DNA of 63,779 nucleotides, the filler included, from Folioceros fuciformis (Eukaryota): assembly GCA_049999805.1 (NCBI GenBank). It is 5 parts of 4 records of this genome, joined end to end, with 100 filler letters (N's around TTAATTAATTAA, not from the genome) between each part and the next. Parts side by side here need not be neighbours in the genome. Positions count along the whole stretch, not along the records: positions 1 to 19,576 come from JBNGIO010006356.1; 4 more parts are not named here. One strand, 5' to 3'. The number at the start of each line of letters is the position of its first letter. The stretch's first letter is position 1. Below the pieces are notes generated by a model. It worked only from the letters and a program-made list of their open reading frames with translations, was not told the DNA's origin and did not search any database. Shown here one piece after another: positions 5,844 to 58,442 of this stretch. A program made the translations under genes and the position numbers.

Positions 5844-6621
5844 CGTGCCTCCGGCAGCAGATCACCAATCCCACGGCCTGGACAAGCCCACCCTCCCCAA
5901 CTTGCAGATCAATGCCACTCCATTCCAAGGTGAAAGGACTGTGCCACCCTGCGAGAATCTCGCACCGCTGCAGTTTAGATCTGCTGAGGCTCCTCAGTTC
6001 CGGGTTGCAGTGTCACCCGAAAACCACAGCTGGAGGCGGGATCACGAGCCTCCAGAAGCAAAGGCGCGGACTGTGATTCTCAGCACCGGGCCAGGAGTCT
6101 GTTGTCCTGCCCCAAACGCCTTGTAATGTAGCGAGTCACGTAGAACAGATGGGGAGTAAAAAGGAAGCGAGTAGTCAAATGCTCCTTTCTTACCACATTC
6201 TCGATTTTTCAGCTCGTAGGAAACGCTTTCCGAGTTGGGATCGGGGGCCATGATTTGCGGCGTTGTCAGCGATTGCGGGCCGTAGTATGCCATCGTGTTG
6301 GGTAGCGGCATGTTCGGTCCTTGTTTGTTTTCAGTTTTGGATGTCCTGAGCGTCAGCTGAAGACGTTGTGGTGAAGAGGTGCGTCCTTGTCTCTGTCGCT
6401 TGGGCCGGCAATGCATCCTCGTAACCCTTTGGTGGTTAGGTTCAGTTCCATCCATGTGGGTGATGTGACCCTGGGTGGCCCGGTGTGGATCAACAAATGC
6501 AAGTGCTATGCTTTAACCTGCTGCTGCAGACTTCCGGACCTGTGTAGTGCAGCCTACATGTTGTTGTTGGCGGTGGTGGTGGGGGTGGGGGGTGGTTCTG
6601 GATGGTCAGCGAGAGATTATC

Positions 6622-8880
6622 ATGAGGCGGCCCCGCAGAAGACTTGTCTACACCATGGGGCTGCGAGATCCCGACATTCCGTCCTACGTGCCGCCTGACT
6701 CGTTTGTGAAATGCGAGGATGATTTTCAGACGAGAGGCGGGGGACCCTCGCCCTCGGAGAAGGAGAGCTGCAGCACTTCCGTTGGTTGCTACTCTTCTGC
6801 TTCCCTAAAGCCTATGGAGGACCTGCAAAGGGAAACTTCCTTTCTACAGCAGGTGCGGTCCGAGGTGCAACAACTTGAGCTTGAGGCTAATTACGCAAGG
6901 ATCATGGGGGATCTGTGTACCACAAGAACTGTGTTGGAGGAGATGGTGGATGAAGTTGTGGCTGGTTTTGCAGATGGACGTTTTTCCAAAAAAGGGGCTG
7001 CAGAAAGCTCGATGAAGTTGATGGTGGATGAGGTTTCCTTCTCCGGGAGAGGTCATCTTCCGCCAGCGGACGGTAGCCAGGGATCTAGTTACTATTCTTT
7101 GAAGGAGATCACATCCGAACGCAAGTTCTCGAGTTTGCATCTGAAACATGGCACGATTTGCAGGGAGCAGCCTTCGAGGGCGGGGGAGGCCATGTCGGTT
7201 ACCTTGGAGAAGGTGAAGAAGATCAGGGACTTGCTGGTGGGGCCTTCCAGCTCTGCGGTGGCGGATGATGCTGTTTGTTTTGCGTCCGGACCAGCAGCAG
7301 TTGGATCCAGTGAGCAGGAGTCGAGAGAGAGGATTCCCTCGGAGAAGTTTGTGGAGCATGGTGCACAGGCTGTGGCCGTGGGGGAAAGGGTGGCAGGGGA
7401 AACCATGGAGATGAGGCCGATGAAGGAGAATGTTGCGTTTGAGCCAGGGGCGACATTGCGTTCGGTAACCGAGCCCCTTGGACCTGAGGAGTTGCAACTG
7501 CCTGATGAAGGCCCCTCCGCGGGATTCTCTGGAGGGGTAGGGGCAGGGCTGAGGCTATGTGATTTGGAGCAGTCTCTGTGGAGCACTTTGCCGTATGATC
7601 TGATGGAACGAATTCTGGCCTGCCTCCCCCTCCCGTCCCTTGTGAGTTGCCGTGCAGTGTGCAGAAAGTGGAACCGTACTCTCATGGAAGACCGCGGATT
7701 TCTGGCTGTCTACTCCGCCATACCCCCAGAGAAACCCTGGCTCTTCACCTGGGACAGCTGGATTGAGGATGACTCTCACGCCTACAATCCGCGGCTGGAC
7801 AGGTGGTACAAGATCCCGCTTGGCTTCATTCCCCACGAGCATGTCAAGAGACCGTTGCACATCGTCGGCGCTGTGGGAGGGTTGCTCTTCTTCGAGTACT
7901 TTGCCCGCCTCTACATCGCGCTGTGCTTGTGCAATCCGGTAACCAGGGCGTGGAGAAAGTTTCCTCCTCTGAATGAGAAGAGAGTGCAGCCAGTGGTGGC
8001 AGTGTTCCAAGACTGCGAAAGCTCAGCTCAAAGGGGAGATTTCATCGTTGTTGTGGCTGGCGGTCTCTCCAAGCCGTCTGTGATGCACAAGGTATGGTGA
8101 CTGCACACGGATGCGCATGTTGCAAAGCAACTCCCCGATTCCGTTGTGCACTCTGTCCATCTCAGGTCACAAGCAGTCGTTTAGAGGGCGGGCTGGAAGG
8201 CTTATCCCGCCATTAGCCTCACCACGAGGGGGCTGGTAATCTACCCTACCTGACACCATCTATTGCAACCATGCCCTGTAAAGGTGTACTCCACTGAGAT
8301 TTTCCACTCTAGAGCAAACTGCTGGCGGAAAACCTGTGATAAAATCACAGACGACGGTGGTCACATCCGATGGGGCCCCTACGTCAGAACAGCCTTCTGC
8401 AATGGGAGCCTCTACTACATGTTGTGGAGGTTCAAGCTCCTAGCGTACAACATGAGTAGTGGAACCTGGAGTCATGTACAGGCCCCATGTCCTCCGGCCC
8501 TTGATCCCGAGAGTGGAATTTCTCCCTTCCTGGTGGAGTCCAGAGGAAGACTTCTCATGATAGGGTTTGTAGACAACGACAGACGAGTTGTTGAAGACGG
8601 GCTCGCTATTTGGGAGTTGAAGAGTGGAGGCAGTGCCTGGGTGGAGATAGCACGCATGCCGGATAAGTTTTTTGAGCGAATGCCTCTAAGGAAGATTCAG
8701 GGGGTTGGTTGTTCGGATTTGATCTACATTTATGAGAATTTCAGCACTCCTGTCGTGATTTGTGATCTTTCCAAACAAACACCGGAGTGGAGGCAAATCG
8801 ATAGTGGGTGCATCAGAGGGAATAGCAGGGTCATTTACGGTTGTGCCACCGATCTTCGACTTGATGCTGCTCTTTTCTAG
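6622..8880 (+). CDS. F-box protein with kelch-like/F-box-associated C-terminus and long N-terminal extension; exons 6622-8091 and 8284-8880
   Basis: F-box WSTLPYDLMERILACLP..RAVCRKWN; downstream GAVGGLL, LCNPVTRAWRKFPP, FCNGSLY, LVESRGRLLMIG; in-frame phase-0 intron. Start codon uncertain. Confidence 0.9.
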
Positions 8881-9486: not shown

Positions 9487-12400
9487 TCAGCGTTTCTGAA
9501 CTTCGGCATAGGGACGGTCTCTGGCAACGTAGAGGCGGCTCCTGGACAGGTTCGCAAGATCAGCAATCAAGCTTGTCTGAGATATGTCTTTTGCAACCAT
9601 CTCGAGAACCTGTGATGCAACGGAGTTTGAAGCTTAACTGGGCTTCTCAGCATGGTCTCGCCAAGAAGCAGCGTTCTTGTTCGGAGTTGAAGAGAGCTAA
9701 CATACCTTCTCATACTCCGTATAGGAGCTTGCCGTTTTCTTTCCTGTCTGCGTGTCCACAACTTTCCAGCTCTTCTCAATGGGATGCCGCGCACATTTGA
9801 TAACCTTGTCGGACAGCTTTTGTCCATCCGCAGTTTCTATTCAGAAAGAGGAATTACGCAAAGGGGGAGTGGAGACAACTTGTGAGGTGAAACGATCTGA
9901 GCAAGTAGCGTACCAGGAAATGTCAGAAGCTTGACTGCCACCTCTTTTAATTTATTGCCGTCTTCCACCAAATAAACATGCGGATGGCCTTCACCGGGTG
10001 AAACCTGGTGAAGCAGGTTACATGAGAACTAAGCATGGTCTAAGGTCACAAAAATGCTCCAGATCCACTGGCGGAAGACCCAGCACCTTCAGCAGGAAAT
10101 CAATGTGATGCATGAACGTCCACTGAAGAAAACCTTCACCTGCTCCCGTGACATACGGTCCATCCCAATCCTGCCCAACACACCATGCACAGAAACGTTC
10201 GGATTCCTTCCAAGAGTACAGTTAGCCTTAATCGTAACAATATACTTCTTACTTGGAATATCACTCCGTCGGCAGGATGAGACAGCTTGGGAATGAATTC
10301 TTGAAGCATATTTTTCATCGAAGAGAGATTATAGAAATACTTTCGTCTGACCTGTATCAGTAGAACCTGATCAGAGAATCTACGAAGCTATCCTGGACAT
10401 ACAGACGAATGAAGGCAACCAGGGAGGATTAACCCACTCTGAAGACCTCCTTGTTGTAATAATAATCTTTGTTCGCTTGGTCCTCAGCATTCCGAGGGGC
10501 CGTGATTTCGTCTTCAATCAACTGGTGTCTGACATGGAAAGGGATCTGCACAAGCAAACAGAGTGGTTCATTCTCCAGTGTGTGATTTCTAACTTGAACT
10601 AGTACGAAATGAAGTACGCAAGGACGCCACTGCTGGGGACAAAGCTTGCGTAGGACATACGTTCTTCGTATGTTCTTTGTTGAGCATTAAGAGATCACTA
10701 ACAAGAAATCTCCTGATCTGGTTGGAGTTTACATCAGTATCTAATACCATTTCACCATCAAGGAGTGTATAGTGATGAGTTTTAACCCTCCCATCCGAGG
10801 GGCCCTGCCGAAAGAATTAATTGCATGAGCAAGCAGGACAACATGCTCCAACTGTGGGCAAACCGAAAATCCCAACAGACACTAGTTACCTTGCGGGGAC
10901 GGGGAAAACGCATCTCCACCCTTCTGAACTGGAAATCAGCGTCAATTAGATAGCATCCATCGCGACATATGAGCAGCATGTAGCGCGCTGCTACTGGTTT
11001 CCACGTTATTCGAAAGTATCTTTGTAGGAGTACACCATCCAAGTGAGCTCTGCAAACCACATCCAGAGCAAGTTGACGGCTTCCGGTCTCAAGTACGATA
11101 CCATTCTGGCTTACGAACCACAATTCCTAGAGCCGCCAAACTGGTAAGGAGGATCATACCTGCTCAAAGACAATGGCACTGATTGTGGAAATATCATCCT
11201 CCCTTGGCCTGAAGGCTGCCCAAGCCGTAAATATGTGTCAGCATCCCAATACCATGAAAGGCTGACAAGCAGATGCTTTCAGTGTCACGCTGCGTCTTCC
11301 CTGCCCGTCCCCAACATCGAGTCCTAGTGAGGGGGAACTCAAGCAGAAGATGAACAAGAATGCTTTGAAGACTGTCACACTTCCCACCACCTGGCTTTAG
11401 ACTCTCACGTAACTGGCACAGCGAAAGAACGAGTAAAAGATAATGTACTGGAGTGCAAGCCTCAGCACTACCAAGAAAAACCTTACCAGCTCAAGCTCAA
11501 GAGCCCAATAGCAGATCTTTTGCATCTCAAGTTGGTACTCCTCGGGTATGGCATCGCCCAAAACATCGTCAGGAGATGCCTGCACGTCACATCATGGAGC
11601 TAACTGAGCACAAGTGTGATATGAAATAGGGGACGACCTTCGGTGATGCGAGATATTCAAAGACAAGGCAACAAACCTGTAAGGCTGACGAGTTGTCCTC
11701 CTTATCCACACCAGATTCTTTACTGCTCATTTCTGAATCACGTTCTTCAAAATGTTTCCAGGTAGGCTTCTTTGGACATATGTAGGTTGTAGCATGTCGA
11801 GCATTGTAGAAAGTGAACAAACTATCAATATACTTCCGTTTGTATATACCCGGAGGCCTTGCATATGCAAAAGCTTGGAGAGCCTGCTCAAGCAGTCACT
11901 GTCGTCAGAGTCTCAACCAAGCAACGGGATTGAGTCTTGCCTTTTAGAACCAAGAGCACTGGGGCATGAAAAGGACTGAAGAAGGCAGCATTTGTCAACC
12001 TCTGCCAGTTTGCCACCTCGGGTTCGCATTAGGTAGTGGACAGTCATGAAACCCGTGCGGTTGTAACCATGCATGCCGTGAACCAAAACACACTTGCTCT
12101 TCGCACCTCCATCCTGCCTGCTAGCACAGAAGTATTTCACAACCTGCATCCAGAAACGAGCCACGAAGTAAATTAGTTGAGCCTAACAAGCTCTCAGGGT
12201 GGTTGCCTTACAATGATTTTACCTCGTATACAAACTTGTTGACCGACACTGGATCCGGCACTTCCTGCCTCCCTTTACACGGTATCTACAGCCAGCTCTA
12301 CAATCGTCAAGGCGTGAAACAAGGGCAGCAAGGCTATGGAAACGAATGCAATCCCTTCGAATCGCATGCATACCTTCAAGTACTGAACTCCACTCGCTTT

Positions 12401-12948
12401 CCAGTCCTCTGAGGAACAGGATTTGTCGCCCACAGTGAGATCAATCACCATACCCACCTGCAGAAGCATGCGCTTAATGCAGTCCGTGAAACGAATTCAC
12501 GCATTCCCACCACAAGCTAAACCAAATGGGCCCTCTTGAAGGAAGGAGAGGGCCACCTCGCGCCCAAGACCCCTCTGCTGAGAAATCAACTCCGCACTGG
12601 AATAACGCAATTGAGGGACCAGCGTGCTGTTTAATGCTTTGCTAAGCGGACACTTTGACGACACCACTCCCTCAAGTGGATGGCCAGCAACCGGGCACTC
12701 CATCCACTCTGCACGCCATGGAAACAGTCTGTCAAAATCCGCGCGAATCAGCTGGTGGTGCATGTAGCACCAATTCGCTGCTTCCTGAACGTCCCGCCAA
12801 CGGCAGCAAACAAATAGACGGGGGGCTTTTTCCCTCCCCGTGAATCTATGCAGGAAACACAGGCCTATACCATACCTCGCAGCGCAAGATCATTTCCAGG
12901 ATGTTGAATTAACTCGGGGCCTGAAGGGGGAACTGTATCAGACGCCAT
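9487..12948 (-). CDS. mRNA capping enzyme homolog (RNA triphosphatase + guanylyltransferase + OB fold), multi-exon, catalytically divergent
   Basis: Exons translate to WMECPVAG..SKCPLS, VIDLT, IPCKGRQEVPD, HGMHGYNRTGF, RPPGIYK, DDVLGDAIP, WKPVAARYMLLI, TLLDGEM, HPADGVIFQ, DWDGPYV, VIKC..SWKVV, collinear with plant capping enzymes. Last exon 9609-9487; ATG 12948 is inferred. Not every junction was checked. Confidence 0.88.
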
Positions 12949-13343
12949 CCTACCGATCGGGACTCGTATCTCCAACTCAATCCTTGCCGTTGACAGGAAC
13001 AACAGGTGATGAAATGCTCAAAGAATTATCCTGCACCCCGTGACGGGATACGGAATGCAGTCCTTGCTCAAATTTTCGATAATCGCCAAGAACCAATGCG
13101 CTGGTACGAGGGACCAGCCCGCAGCCAGGAGAAAGCATGCGAAGAACGGGACAGCAGTGTCGTTCTGCTTCTGCACCCAGACTCTCCGTCAAGAATCGTC
13201 TTGGCAATTTTTGCGCCAAAGAAAAAGGAGGAAAAAAAAAAAAAGAATCGTCTTGGCAGGACCCCACCTTGGTCCACGTTGGCGGCCACGTAACGCGGGT
13301 GTCGGAACTTGCTGTGCTGAGCTCGAGCGCTAGCTAGCTAGCT

Positions 13344-14274: not shown

Positions 14275-14959
14275 TCAAATGCCATGTCGTTCCTGCTTCG
14301 GATCTGGACACCCATGCCTGCGAGTTTGCGTACAATTCTTTGCCATCTTCAATCAATTGCATCTGCACAGAATGTGACTTCCGACAGGATTGTGCCTCAG
14401 CATCCTCATGACTGTCTAACGTTTGTCCACAGCCGTTGAAGGTCGACCTGCCGTTTGTAGGACTTCCACGAATCAACCGTAACATGTTACAGGAAATAAG
14501 TCACGCACCGAGCATCAGTAACCTGTCAAGGGAAGCAAACAATCAAGGGAAGCAAACAATCCAGGAGGTCTTGTGGTGAGAGACAGCACGTCCACCCGGG
14601 TTCACCGGCAGGAGGTGTGGTTGCGACATAGAATGTAAGACCGAAGTGATCACTAGCGGGATGAGAAGATCTGGGTTGCACATCACTTCAGCTTCCTTGA
14701 GTCCCATGATTTTGCTTGGCAGAACCGCATATAGAAGCCAACCTGCGGGGATGTGGAGTGTGCTATATGGGTGGAAAGGAGCTATGAGGAGGTGGAAGCG
14801 GGGAGGAGGAGAGGAGGAGTTGCAAAATGGCAAGCAAGGATTAGTGGCAAGCGGAAGCTTGTATGCTTGCGGACTAATCGGACTCGCCGTCCTTCTGGCG
14901 ATGAAGTAGATGTAAGGAGGGTGGGCATTGAATGAGTTGCTCGCTCGAGTCGTACCCGC

Positions 14960-15430
14960 TAACGAAGTGCAAGGTCTGCGTAACGAAGTGCAAGGTCTGC
15001 GGAACGTAACGAAGTGCAAGGTCTGCGGAACGTAACGAAGTGCAAGGTCTGNNNNNNNNNNNNNNNNNNNNNNNNNNNNNNNNNNNNNNNNNNNNNNNNN
15101 NNNNNNNNNNNNNNNNNNNNNNNNNNNNNNNNNNNNNNNNNNNNNNNNNNNACGAAGTGCAAGGTCTGCGGAACGAAGTGCAAGGTCTGCGGAACGAAGT
15201 GCAAGGTCTGCGGAACGAAGTGCAAGGTCTGCGTAACGAAGTGCAAGGTCTGCGTAACGAAGTGCAAGGTCTGCGTAACGAAGTGCAAGGTCTGCGTACC
15301 GAAGTGCAAGGTCTGCGTACCGAAGTACAAGGTCTACGTAACCAAGTGCAAGGTCTACGTAACCAAGTGCAAGGTCTACATCATGAAGTGCAAGGTCTAT
15401 GTAAGGAAGTGCAAGGTCTACATAATGAGG
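14960..15430 (+). repeat. 21-bp tandem repeat (AACGAAGTGCAAGGTCTGCG[G/T]) spanning a gap; encodes an EVQGLRN heptad
   Basis: At least 16 visible copies, diverging toward the 3' end; gap at 15052-15151. Confidence 0.95.
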
Positions 15431-15879
15431 CAAATTCATCCCAACCTAGGCATAAAGACTATGTAGTTAGTGTGTTTTTAAGCCCCCATGCATACCTTGG
15501 TCTACTTTACCTTTGCTAACTGTTCTTGTTCATGAATGTGGATATGGAAGGGCACGAGGGTGGGGACGAGGACGAGGAAGAGAATGATCAAGGAAATGAG
15601 GAACTTGGCACTCAAGCTCGAAATCTAGTGTCTGGCAACTCAAATGGTGTCGCTCACAATGACAGACTCCCATATTACCAACTGGGCTATTGAAGGATCT
15701 ACTACTACGACTCATCGTTTATGACACACTCTAGCGATACTAGCATGGAATTGGTATATATGTCATGGTGATTTCATTATAAATAAACTTACATGTTTTA
15801 TAGGCTATATCAATCCAAAGGTTCATATCAACCTATGTTGCATGTGCCTAAGATAAGGATAATTGAAACAAGGCATTTA

Positions 15880-19576: not shown

Positions 19577-22500
19577 NNNNNNNNNNNNNNNNNNNNNNNN
19601 NNNNNNNNNNNNNNNNNNNNTTAATTAATTAANNNNNNNNNNNNNNNNNNNNNNNNNNNNNNNNNNNNNNNNNNNNGTACACCCTCAGTTCTGGTCCTCA
19701 ACATTTTTGTTTTGACCTTATTCACCCGCCAATCCTCCATCTCTAATGGAGGCTCTTTCCACGGTTTATTTCTCTCTCTGAGATTATAACGACCTCGTGT
19801 TTCAGCTGCAGGAACCTCCTCAACAATGGGTATGTCACCATCTACTTCAGCATGCATATCAACTTCAACTTGCTGGTTCAAACCAGAGTCATCCACAGAA
19901 GTGCTGTCCAGTTCACCATCGTCAGGTTCAAGTGCGAAAGTTTCAGCATCTTCTTCAAAGTAACAAACTTCCACATCTGTTGGTTCAGCATTCTCTCCTG
20001 CAGGGGACCACTCCAAGACATCTTCGTCCTCATTGTCAGGCTGATCCACTACCCCACCATCAAGATTGGGGCTGTAAGACTGTACTTGATGGTTTTAACA
20101 AGCTCTTTTCATCAAAGATAACACTTCTTGCATGACTCACGACCCGTGACAAAGGGTCATATAGTTTGTATGCTTTTATACCATCAGTATACCCAATAAA
20201 AATTAACTTCTGAGCTCTGTCATGCAGCTTGGTCCTACGCTTGGGTTTGGGAACGAAGGCATACGCAGGTGAACCAAAGATCCTTAAATGTTGGACAGCA
20301 GGCTTCCGACCCCACCATGCCTCGAACGGAGTAGTACCAGGTAACACTCGAGTTGGCAGCCTGTTTAGTAAATAGTTGGCAGTGTTGATTGCCTCACCCC
20401 AATAATGCCGAGGCAGACGTGCTTGCTTGAGCAGGGCTCGTGCTGTCTCCTGAAGGAGCTGGTTCTTCTTCTTAGCTACGCCATTGAGTTGTGCAGTGTA
20501 CGGGACAGTCAGCTGTCGTTGGATGCCAAGACTCCGGCATTAAGCAGTGAACTCTCCTGAGGTATATTCCCCACCATTGTCGGATCGAAGGCATCTCAGA
20601 CTGCGACCATGATGGCGCTCTCCTAACTGCAAATACTCCTTGAAATGTTGCAGGGTCTCACTTTTATGCTTAAGAATATACAGCATGCAATAACGAGTGC
20701 AGTCATCAATGAAGGTCAGGAAAAATGAGCCACCACCAATCGAAGGTACAGAGATGGGACCACAAATGTCCGAGTGCACAAGCTCCAAGGGGACTACAGC
20801 CCGATGTGCTCCTGATTTATCACAAGGTAACTCATGATGCTTGCCATAAATGCAAGCCTCGCACAGGGGCAAATCCCCCACTTGTCCTGGAATCCCATCT
20901 GAATATAATGTGCTGTTGGTCATGGCCAGGAGTTTGTTTCCATGCGGATGCCCACAGTGTAAATGCCAGACAGTTGCAACTTCTTCTGGAGACAAGTTCC
21001 CACTAATGCCTGCAACGTGCAGCTCAGGTAACCTGCTCCCTAACAGGCTAAGTTGATAAATGTCATTAACAGGGTAGCCTTCCGCAACAGCAACTCGCGG
21101 ATCTCTACTCTCAACTATCGTGCATTTATCATCCTTGAACATGACGTGCATGGGTAGGTCAGATGTCAACTTGCGTACTGACAGCAAGTTTTTCGTGACC
21201 GCAGGTACGTGCAGAACATCTGCCAAATCCAAACTTCTGCCATGATGCAACTTCAAAGTTACTTTACCAGTCCCAAGAATAGGTAAAGTGCTCTCATCTC
21301 CCAACATTACTGACTGCGCTTCATTGTACGGTGTATAGTCACTGAAGCATGATTTGTTATGGCAGATGTGCGCAGAGGCACCAGAATCAATAAACCAGTC
21401 TGGAGTTCGAAATCCAGACGTGGTGAGGCACACTGTCAAAATAACTTGTGCAGGTTTCTTCTTCGGTGCATTCACAGCATGTGCCTCAGGCACCCCAGCA
21501 GCACCCTCCTTCCTAGGCTCTCCAGCCTTCTTTTTACGGCAATCACGTGCCCAATGACCAGGTATTCCGCACCAGTTGCAATTACTTGTCCTCTTTGGAT
21601 TGTTAGAGCTCTGTCCAGGTCCAGTTGACCTGCCCCCTCGACTAGCATTCCATGAACCTCCTATGCCTCTTATAAAGGGTTTACCCCTACCAGCAAACAG
21701 GACTTGCTGACCCTGTGTCTGCTGCCTTCCAGGTCTAGAGGCCAGCCGTGTGGCTTCCTCCTACAGCATGGCTCCAACAACACCGTTAAATGTCATGGAC
21801 TCTGCATCTAAATTCAAGGCCTTTGAGATTCTTGCTTCGACCTTTGCCATGGCCTGCTGGCCAGTGACAAACGGACCATAACTTGGAGGTAATGAGCTCA
21901 GCAGCCTGCATGCTGCCTCATAATCCGTGACTTTCACTCCTGTAGAGCTCAACTTAGCACGTGCAATGCGAAATCTTGCAATGTAGTGCTCAACCGACTC
22001 ACCCTCTGTCATGCGCAGGCTGTGATATCGTTCAGACACAGACATAGATGCAGCCATGTCGTGGGAGGCAAACATCATTGCCAGATGATCCCACATGTCT
22101 TTTGCTGTGTCACCTCGACCATCAGAGGCCTGCCTCAGCATCTCAGGGGCCAGGCCTGACCTGATGAGATTCTTGGCTTTGATGTCTCCAAGTGCCCACA
22201 CTGGATAATCTGCTGAAGTTACTGCAGGTTTTTCTACATCTCCATTCACCCCTGCCCACAGGTTCTTTTCCTCCAGAGCTCCTTGCATTCTCATTACCCA
22301 TATATCATACTCGCTGCCAGTGACCAGTCTGTCCTTCTCTTTAAATCCTCTGCTGGTCAGTGCCTGCAGGGCTGAGAGCATGTCCTCTCTCGCTTTGTCT
22401 TCATCACCCATTTTTAAGTTTCTATACCACTTATAGTCTTCGTGTGAATAATGTGTGTTCACCGAGGCACGATCAGAGGCAGCATCAACCTGAGTGTTCA

Positions 22501-22600
22501 GGTCATCATTATCCTCACTGAAGTCGTAGAGTCCTACCTCCTGAGCTAGTCTCCTTAACTATTCAGGTGTTGTATACGAAATCTCCTGATCACTCATAGA

Positions 22601-31563: not shown

Positions 31564-34236
31564 ATGCACCACATCTATGAGAAAGCCACTGCGTGTAACA
31601 GACTATCGGGCTGGAGACGGATCTTCCAGCGGGGCTCGTCGCTACGTTCTGATTCCAAGGGCATGCCGGATGATACGAACCCTCGTGTGCGTGCAGGATA
31701 CGAAGGAACCGTGACGGCTGAAACTGTGAGCGAACTATGTGATGCCGGAAGTCTCACCAAGGCTGTTGAGGCTTTGGGTGTCCTGGTGGAGACCGGCGGT
31801 TCTATTCTTAAGTCCCTCTTTTATGATGTCCTGAAGAAATGTGTAGCCCAGAAAGATCTTGCTCTGGGTCGCCGCGTCCATGCTTTTACGGTGCAGAAAG
31901 GGTACCAGTCAGACAAGTTCCTTTGCAATCACCTTCTGCGAATGTATGCTGCTCATGGCAGGTTGCAAGACGCGATGGACGTATTCACCAGGGTCACCAC
32001 ACCGGATGCCTTCATGTGGTCTTCCATGATTTCTGCACGTGTAAAGCATGGACAAGCCAAGCAGGCCATCCAACTGTACCATAGGATGCGTAAGTCAAAT
32101 GTTAAGCCGGATGGCCATGTATTTGTGGCAGCCCTTCAGGCTTGTGCAAGGGAAGCAGACCTGAAAGCTGGGCAGCAGGTGCATGCTGATGTCTTGGCCA
32201 GTGGGCTGGATCCTGATGTGTTTGTTTGTAATTGCTTGGTGGACATGTATGCAAAGTGTGGTAGCTTGGAAGACGCCCGAAGAGTGTTTCACGGCTTCAG
32301 TGGAAAAAATGTAGTGACATGGACTGCCATGATAGCAGCGTATTCCCAGCAGGGAATGGGGCAGGAAGCCCTTGGTCTGTACATTGCCATGCTAGAAGAA
32401 GGTATGGTCGTACCCGACTCTGTGACATTTGTGTGCCTCCTGCAGGCATGTGCAAGTGTAGGTGCGCCAGCGTTGGAATCGGGAAGATGTCTTCATACAC
32501 AAATTACAGAACGAGGACCCATAGGTGATTTGTTTGTAGCAAACAGCTTGGTAAACATGTATTCGAAGTGTGGGAGCTTGGAAGATGCTCGAAGAGTATT
32601 TGAAGGACTCGATCAAAAAGATGTCGTGACATGGAATGCCATGATAGCAGGGTATTCACAGCAGGGCATGGGGGAGGAAGCCCTTCATCTCTACCGTGCT
32701 ATGCAAGAGTGTGGTCTCGCTGCAGCTGATTCCGTGACATTTCAGTCCCTACTACAGGCATGCGCAAGTGTGGGTGCTCCAGCTTTGGAGACAGCGAAGC
32801 AGCTTCATGCACAGGTCAGAGAGCAAGGACATCAAGCTGATCTGTTTGTAGCCAATAGTTTGGTAAACATGTACACAAAGTGTGAGAGCATAGAGGATGC
32901 TGAGAAAGTGTTTAACGAACTCGTTCAGAAAGATGTGGTGACATGGAATGGCATGATAGCGGGGTATGTCCAGCAGGGCATGGGGCAGGAAGCTCTTAAC
33001 CTTTACAGTGCGATGCAAGAAGAAGGCATATCTGTACCCGACTCTGTGACATTTATCCGCCTCCTGCAGGCATGTGCAATTGTGGGCACCCCAGCTCTGG
33101 AGAAGGGGAAGCAGTTCCATACGCAAGTCAGGCAACGGGGACATGAAGTCGATCTGTTTGTTGCCAACAATTTGGTGAACATGTATGCAAAGTGTGGCAG
33201 CCTCGAGGATGCGCAGACTGTGTTTGACGGCATTGCTCAGAAGGATGTGGTAACATGGAATGCCATGATAGCAGGGTATTCTCAACAGGGCAAGGGTCTG
33301 GAAGCCCTTCGTCTTTATACAGCTATGCAAGAAAATGCCATGGCTATACCTGACTCCACCACATTTGTGTGCCTCCTGCAGGCATGTGCAGATGTGGCAG
33401 CTTTGCATCTGGGAAGGAAGCTACATGCACAGATTGAAGAGCAAGGGCTTGCTGGTGCTCTGTTTATAGCCCAGAGTCTTATAAACATGTATGGAAAGTC
33501 TGGCAGCATGGTTGATGCACAGCAGGTGTTTGATACATTACCTGAAAGAAACCTTGTCGCCTGGAACACACTGATCGCTGGGCACAGCCGCCAAGGCAGC
33601 GAGGTAGTCTTTGATATGATTGTCAAAATGAGCGAGGATGGTATACAACCAGATGGCCTCACATTCCTTGGTATACTAATGGTATGCAGTCATAAAGGTC
33701 TCGAGGAGAAGGGACAAGAATACTTCGAGGATATGAGGAGACTCTACAGGATCACCCCCACTGTAGAGCACTACACATGCATGGTGGATCTCCTTGGCCG
33801 TGCAGGCCGGCTGGATGAGGCACTAGCTTTGGTGAGGAGAATACCTGTAATGCTTGACGTTGCAGTTTGGCACACTCTGTTGGGTGCTTGTCAAAAATGG
33901 GGCAATGTGGAGGTAGGACGCCATGCTTTCGACCAAGCTGTGAAGCTAAACAAGAAAGATGCATCAGCATATGTGTTGATGTTGAACATATACAAGGGTG
34001 CCCAGATGTGGGATCTGGCACACGAGATGAAGTCAAGAAGGGTACAAATCAGGGCATGGAAGGATCCGGGCCAGAGCTGGTGGACAGATACAGGTGGGCT
34101 AGTGCACATTTTCGTTGCCGGACACACGAGGCATCTCAAAAGTCAAGCCAGGCTGAAACAGATACTTGCCAAAATGGAGAACAATGGGTGCGTGCCACAT
34201 GTGCCCTTGGCACCGGCAGGCTTATCTCATGGATGA
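31564..34236 (+). CDS. PLS-class PPR protein with E1/E2 and WW-type PG box, DYW deaminase truncated
   Basis: 890-aa intronless ORF with repeated P-L-S triplets (NSLVNMYxKCGSLEDA / DVVTWNAMIAGY / PDSVTFVCLLQAC), HYTCMVDLLGRAG, and DPGQSWWTD..VHIFVAG. Confidence 0.95.
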   Translation: MHHIYEKATACNRLSGWRRIFQRGSSLRSDSKGMPDDTNPRVRAGYEGTVTAETVSELCDAGSLTKAVEALGVLVETGGSILKSLFYDVLKKCVAQKDLALGRRVHAFTVQKGYQSDKFLCNHLLRMYAAHGRLQDAMDVFTRVTTPDAFMWSSMISARVKHGQAKQAIQLYHRMRKSNVKPDGHVFVAALQACAREADLKAGQQVHADVLASGLDPDVFVCNCLVDMYAKCGSLEDARRVFHGFSGKNVVTWTAMIAAYSQQGMGQEALGLYIAMLEEGMVVPDSVTFVCLLQACASVGAPALESGRCLHTQITERGPIGDLFVANSLVNMYSKCGSLEDARRVFEGLDQKDVVTWNAMIAGYSQQGMGEEALHLYRAMQECGLAAADSVTFQSLLQACASVGAPALETAKQLHAQVREQGHQADLFVANSLVNMYTKCESIEDAEKVFNELVQKDVVTWNGMIAGYVQQGMGQEALNLYSAMQEEGISVPDSVTFIRLLQACAIVGTPALEKGKQFHTQVRQRGHEVDLFVANNLVNMYAKCGSLEDAQTVFDGIAQKDVVTWNAMIAGYSQQGKGLEALRLYTAMQENAMAIPDSTTFVCLLQACADVAALHLGRKLHAQIEEQGLAGALFIAQSLINMYGKSGSMVDAQQVFDTLPERNLVAWNTLIAGHSRQGSEVVFDMIVKMSEDGIQPDGLTFLGILMVCSHKGLEEKGQEYFEDMRRLYRITPTVEHYTCMVDLLGRAGRLDEALALVRRIPVMLDVAVWHTLLGACQKWGNVEVGRHAFDQAVKLNKKDASAYVLMLNIYKGAQMWDLAHEMKSRRVQIRAWKDPGQSWWTDTGGLVHIFVAGHTRHLKSQARLKQILAKMENNGCVPHVPLAPAGLSHG

Positions 34237-37060: not shown

Positions 37061-40000
37061 CTATGTGGTTCCTGCAACAACGACTTTGTCTTCCCCGATG
37101 GTTTTATTTGAAATGAGCTCTGTGTTTCTTTGGAGCCAAGCATGTGCCTCACCATCCAAAAGAGGCGAAATCTGCAACAAGCATGCGCTGTTAGAAGTGT
37201 CCTCATGGAGCTTAGCAGTCTTCACAAAGGGAAACGAACTCGGGACGAGTAGTACCTTCTCCCACACCTCGGTGTGGTACGCATTGAGCCAGTCAATCTC
37301 CTCCTCCGACATGATCGTCACGTCCAACATCTTCGTCTGTTAGGGGCCGAGAACAGGCATCAGACACTCGAGCAGGAGGGCTTGGCGGAGTTTAGTCAGG
37401 CCAAATTGTTGGAAAGCTTGCCTGAATGGGAACGTATGTCAAACGCTCGAATCCAAGGTATGTCGTGCCTCCGTAATTGTTAGGAGTGTCCACCTCACGT
37501 ACAATCAACAAATTCTGGAGTGACAAAGCCCGCAGTCGTTTTGTCATCACATTCACCTGGAAATCGAGGTCAGGGATGAGACGCTAAACGCTCTTACCTC
37601 TATGCGGATGCCGAAGGACCTGTCTTCGTAGTAGCCGGGTTCATTGCTGACAATCATCCCAGCTTGCAGGCCCGTCATGTTGCCAAATCTAGAACTTATG
37701 CTCTGAGGTCCTTCGTGTACATTCAGAGCTGCACCTACTCCATGCCCCGTGCCTGCGTATTCCAACACAGTCAGCTTGCTTGGATCACGGACAGACGGGA
37801 AGGAAAAGATACGAATAGGCAGGCCCAGGTCAGAAATGCATGTACCATGACGGTAGTCCAGCCCGATTTTCCACAGAGAGGAGCGAGCAAGCACGTCCAG
37901 CACAAACCCAGGAGTATGTTCTGGGAAGACTGCCTTGTCCACAGCGATGTGCCCCTGCAGAGCCACAACATCAGCTGGGATGCTTCGTAGGACAAACCTC
38001 TGATCCACCCTAGCGAACCTGACAAAAGGGCTGGAACTTACTTGCAACACTCTTGTGAAGCACTCCTGTTGCCTCGCAGTAGGGGTGCCGAAGTGTACCG
38101 TTCTCGTGATGTCTGTAGTTCCATCCACAAATTGGGCCCCACTATCTAACAAGAAGAGCTTCTGGTTGTTCACTTCTCCACAAGATGACGGCTCTGCTCT
38201 GTAATGTACAATAGCTCCATTGGCACCCGACCCTGCTATGGTGTCGAAGCTAGTATCTAAGAATCCAGCTTGCTTTGCACGAATTTCTTCCAGCCGATCT
38301 GCAACCTCCACTTCAGTGAGCGATTTCCCCTGATCCACAACTTCGTCTTCCAGCCATGCCCAGAATTCCGCGAGAGCAGCGGCGTCCCTGAATATCAAAA
38401 CCACCAGCTTTATGGTCACGCCGTCCTTTTTCTGAAGACTGTCCTGCATCCAGGAGATACTTGGCTGTGCAAGAGAAAATACCTGAGATGGGCCTGTCTC
38501 ATCCCTTCAAGTTCCGAGGGATTCTTCAGTGCCTTGGCAAGTGAAACAGGTGAATTTCTCGCAATTGCAGCTGGTCCATTCAACCTCTCATGGAATCTGT
38601 CCTTGTTGCCTGCTGATACAGTAGCCTTGTCGTAGTATGCAGAACAAGCATTATTGAATGCCTCGACAATGGCCACACTTAGCCTCTTTGGATCCATCCA
38701 CAACTTTGCTCCCGCTTCAGCTAATCTGCACACACTCCATAAAGCAGTGAGTACTTACGTATTAGACCAAGACCAGACAATTGTCCCTTGGTGCTTAGCT
38801 GACAGGACCAGAATTGGCACCTCTGAATGCTTGGAACCAAGGATGTGTAAGGTTGAACAGTCACTGAGGCTCCTTTCAAGTGCGAAGCAACTGCTGGGGT
38901 AATCTTTACTTCATCAACAAATAACGTAGCCACCTCTTGCTCTATCACTAAATATGCGTAGGTCACTGGCGAATGAGGCACATCACCTCCACGCTGCGTT
39001 TAAAGCAATGTCATGAACAACGAGAAGCCAGAGAAGCACTTTGCAAACACCAGAAAGCGATAACAGTGCGACATTCTTACCAGGTTCAAGACCCATGCAA
39101 CTTCATCAAGCATGCTGATAATGTGTGCAGTAGCACCAGCTGCCTTCATGCTATCACGTATACTCGCAATCTTCGACCTAACATCAACGCCAGCATACTG
39201 GAGATCATGTACTCTCATCTGAGCTGTGGGAGGACGCGGCCTTTTCTCTCCCCAAACTCTGTCCACTAAGTTCTCCTCGTATAGAAGGAGGAGCTTGAGG
39301 TCACCTGCTCTTAAGGTCTGCCTCAAATCTTCGGCTGCATCTGCAGAGAAAAGGAACTGGTCATGGAACACAAACGAAGTTAGGAACGAGCTGCTTCTTA
39401 CAACTAGTTACAGCCTACGTGTTGTCACTCGATCCCAAAATGCCCGCTCACCGGATCAATGCCTACTGTAGAACCTTTAACCAGAACTTCCCGTAGCCAG
39501 TCCCCAACCGGTGGAACTCCTGCAGTTCCTTGCCGCATGAGAGTCCATCCTGGACCCAACTCCTTCTCGGCCTTTGGTAGAAACAATGGACAGCCTTGTG
39601 AGCGACTGACTGCCTTTCACCAAACTGACGTTCCAGCAACATGAGACACAACATTATTGTAAACAAGAAGCCCTATCGTAGTCTACGCTAACAAAGAAAG
39701 AACTTGAGTGGTACCTGCAGAAAGTATCTGCCATCAGTCCAGAGAGCAGCATGTTCTTTTGTCACAACAGCCGTGCCTGAACTGCCTGTAAATCCGGATA
39801 TGAAAGCTCTCCGTTGAAAACAATCTGCTATAAACTCGCTCTGCACTGCACATCATCAGAAACCACGACCTGCGCGGTAGCAAATTCTGTAACCAGGACA
39901 GGAAAAGCTCACTGACCTGATGAGGGTCCTCCGACGGTATAATGTATGCATCGATTGCGTTATCTCCTTCCTTGCCAAAAGCTTCGCGCAGGCCACTTAA

Positions 40001-40708
40001 CCGTTGATCTGGAACGATCTCTTTCTTCTTCAATGATTTCCTCAGTGAGGATGGCTCAGCAACGATACCTTCTGCAGCACTAGAGGCCAAAGTCCTCAAG
40101 GATCGTTTTAAAGCTGTTCCTGTCGTCAATGCATGTGCCTCGGAAGAAAGGCCTCTAGTCAGCCCAACCGTGGACGTCTCGATTGGCACGAATCTCCTCC
40201 AGCCCACGAAAGTTTCGCGACTCGCTTCTACTCGAAGCCTGCCTGACGAATCATCCCTTGCTCTCAATCTCTCACTGCTAATTGCCCGCACCGCAGCATC
40301 CACCAAGGACGGCCGGCACGAAGCTCTGGCACTGCCCCCAAACACCATCCTGGGCCACAATCCTGAAGTTGCAGAAAACTCTGGTCTTCCACCCAGCTTG
40401 TTGCATTGCTTAGCTGACCCCTGCTCGATTGGAACGCATTTCTCTCCCCGCCTCAGACAGCTTGCTTCCTTCCCCTGAAAACGAACGAATTTGGAGACAG
40501 AAAGAGGTGCCTCCAGCTGCCGGACTTTCATAGGCGTGCGTCTGTTAAACGCAGAGGATGCTCTCATTGAGCTCCACAACTTAGAGCCCCCGGAATTGGA
40601 TGACCCACTAGCCCGGTCGCACTGCCGCGAAGCCAAGAAGTCTCTGCTACATGCTACACACGAAGCCTCGGGCGTGAACAAGCCGGCAAGCGCCACAGCG
40701 CTCGCCAT
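37061..40708 (-). CDS. APP2: Xaa-Pro aminopeptidase (aminopeptidase P, organellar type with long N-terminal extension), multi-exon
   Basis: [78 protein letters not shown] motifs. Confidence 0.93.
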
Positions 40709-41236
40709 CAATACTTTCAACAGCGGAAACTGTGCAGGATGCTCTGTACTGTGGAACAGATGTGATCAGATCTAGGATTTCTAACAGGAAGGGACGTGGG
40801 ATGCGCACCCTGTGCAGATTGTTCCTCACCTTTAGCCTTCTCCTTCTAATACATCGAATTCGCCAGCAACGTCGTCCCCGCTTCCCGCTTGGCAGAGTAA
40901 TCCAGGATTTAAAGCTTTGCTATTTTAAGAAATTGTTGCCACGTATTTCGCGCTGCAGCTCCCGGATGCTCTCGTCCACCACATGCGGCTTTGCAGCTTT
41001 AGGTCTGTTTGAGCTCTACATGCACGCTCACCGCTCGCATGTTAGAGGATCTAGGACTGTTACACGCAAAAACCCGGTTCCGTTACATTATAGTGTACGA
41101 TGCATCGATCATCGAACACGGAAATCCTGGATTGAGTCCCGTGGGAATAGCATGAGGACACCAGGTTTCTGCTCTGTTCTCTGGGAACAAGGATTTCTCC
41201 CTTGCAGCTTCCTTGCAGGTTGATACAGTCATCGCA

Positions 41237-43222
41237 ATGGCCGGAACTCAGCTGCTCAACAGCATCTGGAGAGTGTGGGTTGCCAGGCAATGCTTGCTGT
41301 TTCCGCAGAATCTGTGCACTGTAGGGAACCATTTTGCTCTGACGTCATGCAGCACGCAATTGACACACAGACTTCACGCAACCGCAGGGTTCTGGAAGAC
41401 TTTGCATGTTGTGCCCTTCATGGTTAGGGCAGTATCTGTTGTAGAGGAACTGACGGTACCAGTTGTAGGATGCTTTTCACCTTGTGGAATCGACCGGCAT
41501 TGGCTTTGGGAAACGTGTTCAGAGCGTTTGTTGATGTCGGGCCCTCGTGCAGGGAAAGCATGCAGCATCATGCACCTCGTCAAGGACCGGGGGAAAAGTT
41601 CAGAGATAGAGGAAGGGTCGGTAGAGTCTCAGCAGGTGGTCGAACTGCCTCCACCTCATTCGAAGAATGTGGAGGCATGGGAGGACTCAACAGGCCTTTC
41701 TTCTTCTTCGAGTGATCAGAAGAAAGTGAGTAGTGCAGACGGAAGCGGTGAGGGACTTGCACAGGGGTCTCTTCCCAAGGGACCCAATACAAGTTCTTCC
41801 TCGTTCTCACCCTTGGTTCGCACACAAGAAGGCCCCGAGGGCACGCCTAAACGTTCTCTGAAGGAAGTTGTGCAGGATGTAGAGGGGTTGCGACACGCGG
41901 AGGACCTCGTCTCCACTTTAGCGGGATTACCTGCCGAGCTTCCTGCAAGGGAATATATAGTCTTACTCAAGTCCGTTCCAGATAGCATGGTGTTCCCATT
42001 GTATACTTGGATACGGAAGGAGTCGAAACAAAAGCCTGATCTCCTTGTATGCCTTGCCACACACAGACGTTTATTAGCATCACAGGAATGGGGAAGGTTA
42101 GAGCGTCTTGTAGACGACATGAGGCAGCATCAATTGCCTCTAGATGTAAAATACTATTGCAGGATCATGAAGGAAGCCAGTGGTGCAGGGAGGCTAGACG
42201 TGTGTGAGAAGTGGTTTCGTATGATGAAGGAATTCGGATGCCAACCAGATAGGATAGTCTACAACACACTCATCCATGCGTACTTGAAGAAGAAAATGCA
42301 CGAGAAGGTGTTTTCCACGTTCCAGGAAATGCTAGGGAGTGGCATCTCTCCAGATTTGTTCACTTTCTGCCACCTCTTGTCCTCATGTCGAGACACTAGG
42401 GATGTGACAGGGGCAGCAAGACTCTTCACAGAGTTGAAGAGCTCTGCGATTCCACGGAACCATGTACCATCAAGCATTCTCTTGGACCTCTATGGGAAGT
42501 TTGGGATGACAGCAGAGGCAGCTGCCTTGTTTAAAAGTATGCAGGAGGAAGGGCTGCATCCAGACGCCACAGCGTACAACACAATGCTGCATGCTTTTGC
42601 AAAGGAAGGCATGGTGGATGAGGCAACATCGGTTTTTCAGGACTTCTGTCGATCTGGCTGTGGACCAGATAAGATCGTCTTCTGGACAATGCTGCGGATG
42701 TACTGTAAGACCAACCATCCTGGAAAGGCAGCTGAGCTCATGGCCACAATGAGGCAGCGCGGCTTGCCTGTCAGCGAAGACTGCTACTCTGCAGTGATGA
42801 TGGCCTACATCAATACCGAGCAGTGGGAAGATGCAGTCCACCATATGAAAGACTGGCAAATATCAGGCTGCCCTATATCAGTGAAATCCTACACTCTTAT
42901 GCTCTACGTCCTGTTCCGATCAGGCCAGCACTTGGCTTGTGAGCGCCTATTCCGCCGTATGATCTCAAAGAAGGGCTACAGGAACCACCTTCCAGCCTAC
43001 GAGACGATGATCCGGATCTATTACAAAACCAACCGTCCCAGACAAGCCATGTCCATCTACAATCTCATGAAGGAGAACGGCTGCACCCCGAATTCAAACG
43101 TACTGCGTTTCCTGCTCAGCTTGAACGTATCTGCAGGGGATCAACCGATGGTGAACATGCTGCGCCAGGAAATGAAGGGCAGTGAGGTTGAAAGCATGGA
43201 GACACTGAATGTCTCAGAGTAA
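41237..43222 (+). CDS. P-class PPR protein (organelle-targeted), intronless
   Basis: Tandem 35-aa repeats (PDRIVYNTLIHAY, PDATAYNTMLHAF, etc.) in the C-terminal half. True start codon uncertain. Confidence 0.92.
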   Translation: MAGTQLLNSIWRVWVARQCLLFPQNLCTVGNHFALTSCSTQLTHRLHATAGFWKTLHVVPFMVRAVSVVEELTVPVVGCFSPCGIDRHWLWETCSERLLMSGPRAGKACSIMHLVKDRGKSSEIEEGSVESQQVVELPPPHSKNVEAWEDSTGLSSSSSDQKKVSSADGSGEGLAQGSLPKGPNTSSSSFSPLVRTQEGPEGTPKRSLKEVVQDVEGLRHAEDLVSTLAGLPAELPAREYIVLLKSVPDSMVFPLYTWIRKESKQKPDLLVCLATHRRLLASQEWGRLERLVDDMRQHQLPLDVKYYCRIMKEASGAGRLDVCEKWFRMMKEFGCQPDRIVYNTLIHAYLKKKMHEKVFSTFQEMLGSGISPDLFTFCHLLSSCRDTRDVTGAARLFTELKSSAIPRNHVPSSILLDLYGKFGMTAEAAALFKSMQEEGLHPDATAYNTMLHAFAKEGMVDEATSVFQDFCRSGCGPDKIVFWTMLRMYCKTNHPGKAAELMATMRQRGLPVSEDCYSAVMMAYINTEQWEDAVHHMKDWQISGCPISVKSYTLMLYVLFRSGQHLACERLFRRMISKKGYRNHLPAYETMIRIYYKTNRPRQAMSIYNLMKENGCTPNSNVLRFLLSLNVSAGDQPMVNMLRQEMKGSEVESMETLNVSE

Positions 43223-50046: not shown

Positions 50047-50172
50047 TTGCTGATGTCTTCATGAACCAGGTATCATTTGTCCCCTAACATCTGTTCCTAG
50101 AACTCTGTTGTGATTAACCTGCACAGCACAGGTTACAACTTCACACATTAGTGTCTGTTAAATCCTACAAAC

Positions 50173-58041: not shown

Positions 58042-58442
58042 TGAACAATCTTCGGTTTTAGTGACACTAACTCAAGTCTTGGTTTTAGGCATTGATGATT
58101 TTAGCAACACCAACTCAAGTCTGGACGTGCTAAACACCCCTTGGTCCTTAGCATAAATTGGTATCACTCCCTTACCCAAGGCCTTATGATGTACATTGCT
58201 GCCCTTATTATCTGTCTATCTATCTATATATATATATATTATCTTGGTCACAACGATGAAGATCATATATAACTATCTAAAAGGGTCCGATCATCTATAA
58301 CTATCCAAAAGGGTCCATCTCTATAACTATCCAAAAGAGTCNNNNNNNNNNNNNNNNNNNNNNNNNNNNNNNNNNNNNNNNNNNNTTAATTAATTAANNN
58401 NNNNNNNNNNNNNNNNNNNNNNNNNNNNNNNNNNNNNNNNNG

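Follow-up and report, generated by a model that had tools for sequence, protein, structure and literature searches.

A stretch of 63,779 nucleotides from the genome of Folioceros fuciformis (GenBank assembly GCA_049999805.1), composed of five parts joined by filler and referred to here as the window, contains on its minus strand, at positions 9487-12948, a gene related to the bifunctional mRNA capping enzymes of plants and animals. In RNA triphosphatases of the cysteine phosphatase type, the cysteine of the P-loop is the nucleophile, while in the guanylyltransferase (GTase) the lysine of motif I is the acceptor of GMP, and motifs I, V and VI serve to bind GTP and to position it. K294 has been named as the essential active-site lysine (PMC8034621). 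Alignment to canonical enzymes supports the description of the gene as a diverged copy of a bifunctional capping enzyme in which both active sites are eroded.

The capping-enzyme-like gene and its exons

The gene was modelled with 16 exons, giving a spliced coding sequence of 1812 nt and 604 codons without internal stops in the script-built model. The start codon is located at 12948-12946 and the stop codon at 9489-9487, and the 15 introns, all of the GT..AG type, range from 77 to 271 nt in length. The exons were drafted by eye and with a script, and the 5' end was then corrected from RNA-derived joints. These joints were obtained from contigs of three sequencing runs, X3, X15 and X17, whose status as RNA was guessed, none of them being recorded as RNA. 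The organism label of X3 is likely that of the source of the window, and X3 was taken to be derived from complementary DNA because its contigs carry splice joints. The contigs of X15 and X17 come from two other organism labels and are 80-99% identical to the window, with most splice joints in common. The exons, all on the minus strand, are as follows.

12876-12948, minus: exon 1, start codon at 12946-12948, with a 5' untranslated region (UTR) extending to at least 13162 (X3 joint 12708->12876; X3 record 19 spans 12876-13162)
12557-12708, minus: exon 2, N-terminus of the phosphatase-like domain (…WMECPVAGHPLEG…) (acceptor from X3 and X15 joint; donor 12557 from the model only, GT..AG)
12374-12457, minus: exon 3, eroded 'DLTNT.RYY' loop, reading DLTVGDKSC (joint 12285->12374 and alignment)
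12223-12285, minus: exon 4 (joints 12285->12374 and 12141->12221, cut +2, in X3 and X17)
12000-12143, minus: exon 5, P-loop VHGMHGYNRTG, in which Gly147 (12075-12077) replaces the nucleophilic cysteine (Pfam DSPc; X3 record 18, 11999-12141, with 0 other letters)
11677-11883, minus: exon 6, end of the phosphatase-like domain (ARPPGIYK) and acidic, serine-rich linker (joint 11882->11999, cut +1, in X3, X15 and X17)
11487-11579, minus: exon 7, linker (…DDVLGDAIPEE…) (donor 11487 backed by X3 joint 11371->11487)
11160-11215, minus: exon 8 in its productive form (PSGQGRMIFPQSVPLSLSR), in frame with the GTase-like domain (predicted by homology to the canonical '…FPGS.PVSL')
11216-11371, minus: upstream extension of exon 8, 156 nt, with the alternative acceptor 11372/11371 (X3 joint 11371->11487; X3 record 17, contiguous over 11160-11371 with 0 other letters; X17 record 11)
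10890-11049, minus: exon 9, motif I WKPVAARY (Lys308 at 10998-11000), 'IDR' motif reading IDA (Pfam PF01331; X3 record 17, with 0 other letters)
10661-10804, minus: exon 10, intact motif III LLDGEM and motif IIIa RRFLVSD (Pfam PF01331; joints on both sides)
10438-10545, minus: exon 11, helix with …LIEDEITAPRN… (joints 10545->10661 and 10349->10436, cut +2; alignment)
10253-10351, minus: exon 12, intact motif IV DGVIFQ (Pfam; joints)
10087-10170, minus: exon 13, motif V FLQWT at 10117-10131 (alignment; joints)
9914-10004, minus: exon 14, OB-like domain (joints; the listed differences to relatives are mostly synonymous)
9706-9836, minus: exon 15, motif VI region VVDTQTGKK at 9739-9759 (alignment; joints)
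9487-9609, minus: exon 16, stop codon at 9487-9489, with a 3' UTR extending to at least 9300 (X3 joints 9607->9704, cut +2, and 9540->9705, cut +1; X3 record 14)

Homology to capping enzymes and erosion of both active sites

When single exons were searched against Pfam, the family DSPc was found in exon 5 (E=4.8e-7) and mRNA_cap_enzyme (PF01331) in exons 9, 10 and 12. The DSPc match, with 30.1 bits, lies below the whole-protein cut-off of 33.5. For PF01331, with a cut-off of 29.6 bits, exons 9 (35.5 bits) and 10 (30.8 bits) score above it and exon 12 reaches 21.8 bits, while exons 13 and 15, each searched alone against Pfam, gave no match. The spliced protein is 40% identical to the capping enzyme of Glycine max over 585 residues and 39% identical to those of Chlorokybus and Spirogloea. 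Because of these Pfam matches and the identity of about 40%, the protein is a homolog of the bifunctional triphosphatase-guanylyltransferase of plants and animals. Its phosphatase part (residues 26-205) is 43-45% identical to canonical plant enzymes, which share 48-55% among themselves, and for the nucleotidyltransferase part the corresponding values are 42-51% and 58-63%.

The register of the motifs was set by solved structures. Exon 5 aligns to the baculovirus RNA 5'-phosphatase (1yn9, E=0.0024) at VHCTHGINRTG, which places a glycine opposite the cysteine. Exon 9 pairs with WKADGTRYMMLI of the mouse and human capping enzymes (3rtx and 3s24), so that Asp-Gly of WKADGTRY is read as Val-Ala, and for exon 10 the counterpart is LLDGEM in both 3s24 and 8p4a. 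For exon 11 alone, only a chance match to solved structures was obtained (E=6.2). Residues were mapped to the human enzyme by a plant profile aligned to 8p4b, which fixes the motif positions.

In an alignment with 16 canonical homologs, 90 columns are identical in at least 14 of these rows. The window protein retains 66 of the 90 residues, so that those defining the fold are for the most part present. The 24 changed ones cluster in the active sites, 13 of them falling within the P-loop, motif I, the 'IDR' motif, motif V and motif VI or next to these. In the P-loop, Cys147Gly and Thr148Met were identified, while H146, H149, G150, N152, R153, T154 and G155 are retained. Motif I has lost its Ala, Asp and Gly (K-P-V-A-A-R) and has kept Lys308 and the Arg, and in the 'IDR' motif Arg328 is replaced by Ala. 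Motif V reads FLQWT where canonical enzymes have LLKWK, both lysines and the following asparagine being gone. The motif VI region reads DTQTGK in place of the canonical R.R.DK, with two Arg, the Asp and an Asn lost and the Lys retained. Asn482His is a further change of a conserved residue. Motifs III (LLDGEM, with DGE) and IV (ADGVIFQ, with DG) are intact.

These observations bear out the original prediction, made from the sequence alone, that the P-loop reads HGMHGYNRTG with the loss of its cysteine (a GGC codon for Gly at 12075-12077, in the register of 1yn9), that motif I reads WKPVAARY with the lysine kept and Asp-Gly lost (AAA at 10998-11000, aligned to 3rtx and 3s24), and that motifs III (LLDGEM) and IV (DGVIF) remain. 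The eroded motif V FLQWT was likewise found at 10117-10131 and the eroded motif VI VDTQTGK at 9739-9759, aligned to LLKWK and R.R.DK, respectively, of the 16 canonical homologs. The losses go beyond those of the original prediction and also comprise Thr148Met, the 'NT.RYY' loop of the phosphatase-like domain, Arg328Ala, Asn482His and, in motif VI, two Arg together with the Asp.

The P-loop cysteine is present in all 16 canonical rows and in 119 angiosperm enzymes among the matches listed from a profile search. In this search with a plant-enzyme profile, the best 120 of 758 matches were listed; these are angiosperm enzymes, and apart from one (P0029), all 119 keep both VHCTHG.NRTG and WKADGTRY. 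Likewise, none of the 16 canonical rows departs from Asp-Gly in motif I, the 'IDR' Arg, the lysine pair of motif V or the R/R/D residues in motif VI. Since the cysteine nucleophile is lost, the protein would not be expected to hydrolyse the γ-phosphate at an RNA 5' end. Formation or transfer of a Lys-GMP adduct is not expected either, because the residues of motifs I, V, VI and 'IDR' named above are lost. With neither catalytic step expected, the protein would act, if at all, by binding.

It is conceivable that the protein is still an enzyme with an altered chemistry or substrate, in which the GTase-like domain is perhaps nucleotidylated, or even that it is the sole capping enzyme of the organism. 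Retention of Lys308, of DGE in motif III and of DG in motif IV speaks for this. However, the loss of the cysteine nucleophile and of GTase residues which do not vary in any canonical row, together with the conservation of both signature motifs in the 119 other listed angiosperm enzymes, makes this explanation very improbable.

Compared to the bifunctional enzymes of the RNGTT/Mce1 type (8p4b, 3rtx, 3s24 and 1i9s), the window protein has the same domain order and the same Pfam families, but is devoid of the cysteine nucleophile, Asp-Gly of motif I, Arg of 'IDR', the lysine pair of motif V and, in motif VI, the R/R/D residues. The stand-alone RNA 5'-phosphatases PIR1/DUSP11 and baculovirus BVP (4nyh and 1yn9) share the phosphatase fold and the P-loop context with the window protein, and the plant profile matches both. 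Unlike the window protein, these are active enzymes which contain the cysteine and have no GTase domain.

Transcription, selective constraint and surroundings of the gene

Transcription and splicing of the gene are shown by X3. Of the words sampled from a 3.7-kb stretch, 48% are present in this run, which is approximately the exon share, and 19 X3 contigs were placed on the window, each at least 99% alike, with CT..AC joints that match 12 of the 15 introns of the model. From the joints, 15 of 23 were listed, and the contigs drop rare variants; among these 15 of 23, none was found for introns 2 and 6 or for the productive form of intron 7 (acceptor 11216/11215). X3 cover was zero in the bins 12451-12587 and 12725-12861, and no conclusion was drawn from this gap. 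Exon 5 (X3 record 18) and exon 9 (X3 record 17) are covered without any other letters. Thus, the transcripts carry the codons for Gly and KPVA, and a correction at the RNA level does not occur at these sites.

Constraint on the coding sequence was assessed from 40 of 177 differences to relatives, which are a sample and not an estimate of the ratio of non-synonymous to synonymous substitution rates (dN/dS). Of these 40 differences, 21 lie in the 3' UTR or in exons, with 17 of them affecting codons. Relative to the organisms designated B and D, 13 of the 17 coding differences are synonymous and four are non-synonymous (K552R, S542N, R536W and N506D). Under neutrality, 21.9% of single-base changes in this coding sequence would be synonymous and 4.8% nonsense, and the observed share of synonymous changes departs from this expectation with a binomial p=2.5e-6. 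The letters at the joint 10352->10442 were read as two more synonymous changes. In X15, exon pieces differ from the window at 1/101, 6/104, 12/143, 11/202 and 7/156 positions, whereas the intron stretches among those listed differ at 10/46 nt (plus an insertion) and 7/26 nt, so that exons are far more alike than introns between the window and its relatives. The synonymous excess, the likeness of exons over introns and the frame of 604 codons, open at about 60% protein divergence, argue for purifying selection on the protein, including the exons downstream of a premature stop in one splice form.

On these grounds, the gene is probably, with moderate confidence, a diverged extra copy of a plant-type bifunctional capping enzyme that is maintained as a pseudoenzyme in a narrow lineage. 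In enzymes of this type, an N-terminal RNA triphosphatase of the cysteine phosphatase fold is followed by the GTase nucleotidyltransferase and an OB domain. The earlier view of a maintained gene rather than a decaying pseudogene gains weight from the open 604 codons, the 66 of 90 invariant residues retained and the ratio of 13:4 in the partial sample. Frameshifts or absence of expression, with dN/dS near 1, had been named as observations that would speak for a pseudogene; here, the exons of the model contain no stop, and the RNA-like X3 contigs are spliced.

Several observations weigh against a maintained pseudoenzyme. The synonymous excess comes from the partial sample described above. For the OB and C-terminal part, identity to canonical enzymes amounts to 22-25%, compared to 38-49% among the canonical enzymes; within this region, the alignment retains the conserved Cys534, Trp543 and Lys552. 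In the tree described below, the end branch of the window protein is the longest, with 1.65 against a median of 0.92. In the phosphatase-like domain, the 'NT.RYY' loop reads VGDKSC, and the loss of the invariant YY may spoil ligand binding, which weakens the idea of a trap similar to the pseudophosphatase STYX. In X3, the last exon has an alternative acceptor at 9541 by which the C-terminus is read in another frame, with a depth of 11.7 compared to 11.5 for the normal joint. Finally, the intron 7 joint among those listed is 11487->11371, in X3 and in X17, which is from a related species, while the productive junction 11487->11215 is predicted from homology. With the acceptor at 11371, exon 8 comprises 212 nt instead of 56 nt, and the additional 156 nt contain stops in all three frames. 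The open reading frame (ORF) then ends with …ELELSSKHSCSSSA* between the two domains, before the GTase-like domain.

Two statements of the original prediction, or of the checks proposed with it, were therefore confirmed in part. Stop-free exons with canonical splice sites were found for the homology model, with its 604 codons and 15 GT..AG introns, but not for the listed RNA-derived form of intron 7, which has in-frame stops. A full-length transcript is backed by X3 contigs for 12 of the 15 introns, but intron 7 is listed in the stop-bearing form only. With the acceptor at 11371, intron 7 has 115 nt, which is typical of the gene, while with 271 nt the productive form would be its longest intron. 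Since contigs drop rare variants, the productive form may exist unseen.

The stop-bearing isoform could also imply that the product is an N-terminal pseudophosphatase only, of about 285 residues and ending with …ELELSSKHSCSSSA, the GTase-like half being mostly untranslated 3' sequence. The isoform assembled in X3 and X17 stops the ORF between the domains, the P-loop is intact except for its cysteine, and the extension of exon 8, as contained in X17 record 11, is conserved like coding exons, differing from the window at 4/200 positions, compared to 8/161 in exon 9. However, the synonymous bias in exons 14-16 implies that these are translated, and the productive form may be hidden by the loss of rare variants from the contigs. 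A stop upstream of many exon junctions is also a typical context for nonsense-mediated decay (NMD), and here it lies far upstream of eight further junctions. A truncated product is thus considered rather improbable. The conservation of the extension could also mark it as a conserved 'poison' segment, and there is a hint that it may limit the dose of full-length protein by unproductive splicing.

In X17, a joint 9581->9835 was identified which would skip the exon with motif VI. Together with the frameshifting acceptor of the last exon in X3 at equal depth, this joint would also fit the early decay of a transcribed duplicate, either an expressed pseudogene or a substrate of NMD, in which catalysis was lost first and splicing became sloppy, and whose exons have not yet been hit. 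The premature stops of the intron 7 form listed in two species, the long end branch, the heavily diverged OB domain and the loss of both active sites point in the same direction. Against early decay, 604 codons have stayed open at about 60% protein divergence although 4.8% of neutral changes would be nonsense, 66 of 90 invariant residues are retained, exons are far more alike than introns, and the sample of 13 synonymous and four non-synonymous changes includes exons 14-16, beyond the premature stop. Early decay is therefore unlikely, and the maintained pseudoenzyme is the explanation followed below.

The gene is flanked by an F-box/beta-propeller gene and by an unannotated region upstream. 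Additional genes and elements were identified in the window, and several of its copia and gypsy elements are flanked by paired 44-base N runs.

6517-8877, plus: gene for an F-box protein with a KIB1-4-type beta-propeller, tail-to-tail with the capping-enzyme-like gene and ending about 600 nt from its 3' end
14543-15519: minisatellite-like array with units 'DLALRYA' or 'EVQGLRN', depending on the frame, and a 100-base N run inside at 15052-15151
19621-22558, minus, and 58398-59636, plus: fragmented copia-like pieces
31564-34233, plus, and 41156-43219, plus: intronless pentatricopeptide repeat (PPR) genes, one of the PLS type with an E motif and no DYW match, the other of the P type; for the PLS-type gene at 31564-34233, the best named matches are from the lycophyte Diphasiastrum (up to 45%), the liverwort Calypogeia (43%), Sphagnum and ferns, and the window is thus assigned to a land plant without seeds that has no near relative among those annotated
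37556-40765, minus: exons of an M24 metallopeptidase gene (Xaa-Pro aminopeptidase-like)
46248-47613, minus: exons of an AAA ATPase gene
50152-54528, plus: copia-type Gag-Pol ORF of 1459 residues, apparently intact
59453-63586, plus: gypsy-type Pol ORF of 1378 residues

Related copies in other plants and the proposed role

When exon 9 was compared by full HMMER to 1.84 billion representatives, 132 matches were obtained, the best being 64% identical, and KPVAARY was present in none of the 132. A word-index protein search with the same exon returned two candidates, none of them significant. The collection searched includes proteomes of lycophytes, ferns and bryophytes. Since no ortholog was identified among the 1.84 billion representatives although these seed-free plants are included, the copy appears to be limited to a narrow lineage. 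Among the best 120 of the 758 profile matches, relatives from seed-free plants were not found.

Degenerate forms of motif I have also been identified in other plants, namely in seven of the 132 exon 9 matches, five of which are full-length or nearly so. These five are the following.

Ranunculus cassubicifolius KAL5705764.1: motif I WSAVG, P-loop HCTDGYNDTG
Aquilegia coerulea PIA46330.1: motif I WNAVG, P-loop …NNTG
Papaver nudicaule MCL7036532.1: motif I WKAGG
Cluster including Withania somnifera proteins: motif I WSAEV/WTSHG, P-loop intact
Transcript cluster of 10 members: motif I WKAKG, P-loop HMINGYNHIG

Like the window protein, several of these copies have changes in the P-loop, motif V or motif VI, including an Asp-to-Val change at motif I and the loss of the second lysine of motif V. 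Unlike the window protein, none of them has KPVAARY or the change from Cys to Gly.

In a quick maximum-likelihood tree of 21 rows, with 12 partial rows left out, the window protein is found in the streptophyte clade as sister (91 in the Shimodaira-Hasegawa-like approximate likelihood ratio test) to a starred angiosperm clade (97*). Both the soybean enzyme and the remaining degenerate copies fall within this clade, with the window protein outside of it. The tree, and the tree only, favours an independent origin of the window copy and the degenerate angiosperm copies. By the approximately unbiased test, joining the window protein with the Ranunculaceae copies was not rejected (p=0.10), nor was joining it with all four degenerate copies (p=0.051). 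The Ranunculus and Aquilegia copies are 57% identical to each other and grouped together (99*), which suggests that the degenerate copies in the Ranunculaceae have been maintained for a long time.

As a maintained pseudoenzyme, the protein might combine two binding functions. The phosphatase-like domain would correspond to a pseudophosphatase of the STYX type, and its P-loop, otherwise complete (H, H, G, N, R, T and G), could hold a phosphorylated ligand without turnover, the most plausible ligand being a 5'-tri- or diphosphate RNA end. With its GTase-like body, the protein could offer a scaffold for docking at the transcription machinery and there either compete with the real capping enzyme or assist it. 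The alternative 3' splice site of intron 7 would introduce a premature stop between the domains and might thereby limit the output of full-length protein.

For both domains, partial precedents have been described. In STYX, the prototype pseudophosphatase, which binds without dephosphorylating, a glycine replaces the active-site cysteine and a change of this glycine to cysteine restores activity (PMC8622459); like the window domain, STYX has Gly at this position in a P-loop that is otherwise recognisable. STYX, however, is a stand-alone relative of protein phosphatases which binds ERK1/2, whereas the window domain derives from an RNA 5'-triphosphatase, is joined to a GTase-like body and, in addition, lacks the conserved YY loop. 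For human CMTr1, the GTase-like domain has been described as a non-essential helper of its methyltransferase (PMC3941023), and thus, like the window protein, represents a GTase-derived domain without GTase chemistry in the capping pathway. The comparison was made by description only, and the CMTr1 domain is fused to an active methyltransferase, while the window protein has no active domain.

Docking at RNA polymerase II, which the original prediction had offered as an example of a non-catalytic role, was considered from the phosphoserine pockets for the carboxy-terminal domain (CTD) of the polymerase, which in the human enzyme include R330, R358, R386 and R411 (PMC8034621). At these positions, the window protein retains the equivalents of R358 and R411, has Asp in place of R386, and has Pro, flanked by Arg and Lys, in place of R330. 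In canonical plant rows, the equivalent of R386 is K, S or R. As the pocket positions also differ between canonical enzymes of plants, they say little for or against CTD binding.

A more far-reaching proposal is that land plants have repeatedly produced long-maintained, doubly dead copies of the capping enzyme, which would retain the phosphate-binding P-loop and the GTase body in order to read uncapped 5' ends or dock at RNA polymerase II as regulators of capping or RNA quality control, with the dose adjusted here by the 'poison' extension of exon 8. This generalization is speculative and, at present, doubtful.

Literature searches combining capping enzyme with pseudoenzyme or catalytically inactive did not retrieve a dead capping-enzyme paralog, supplements being outside their scope, and for the capping-enzyme loci of Arabidopsis only passing mentions were found. 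Pseudophosphatases and a GTase-like helper domain are already known, while these searches retrieved no published account of a full-length capping-enzyme copy in which both domains are dead. Degenerate copies are present unremarked in several annotated plant genomes, so that this may be a recurrent class that has been overlooked, and not a single case.

The enzyme of capping, an essential process, is commonly regarded as a housekeeping protein with a single function. A merely decaying duplicate would be of little interest. If the explanation as a maintained pseudoenzyme is true, the doubly dead copy would represent a natural 'substrate-trap' capping enzyme, and it would provide a handle on how plants sense or regulate uncapped 5' ends and on the recruitment of the capping enzyme to RNA polymerase II.

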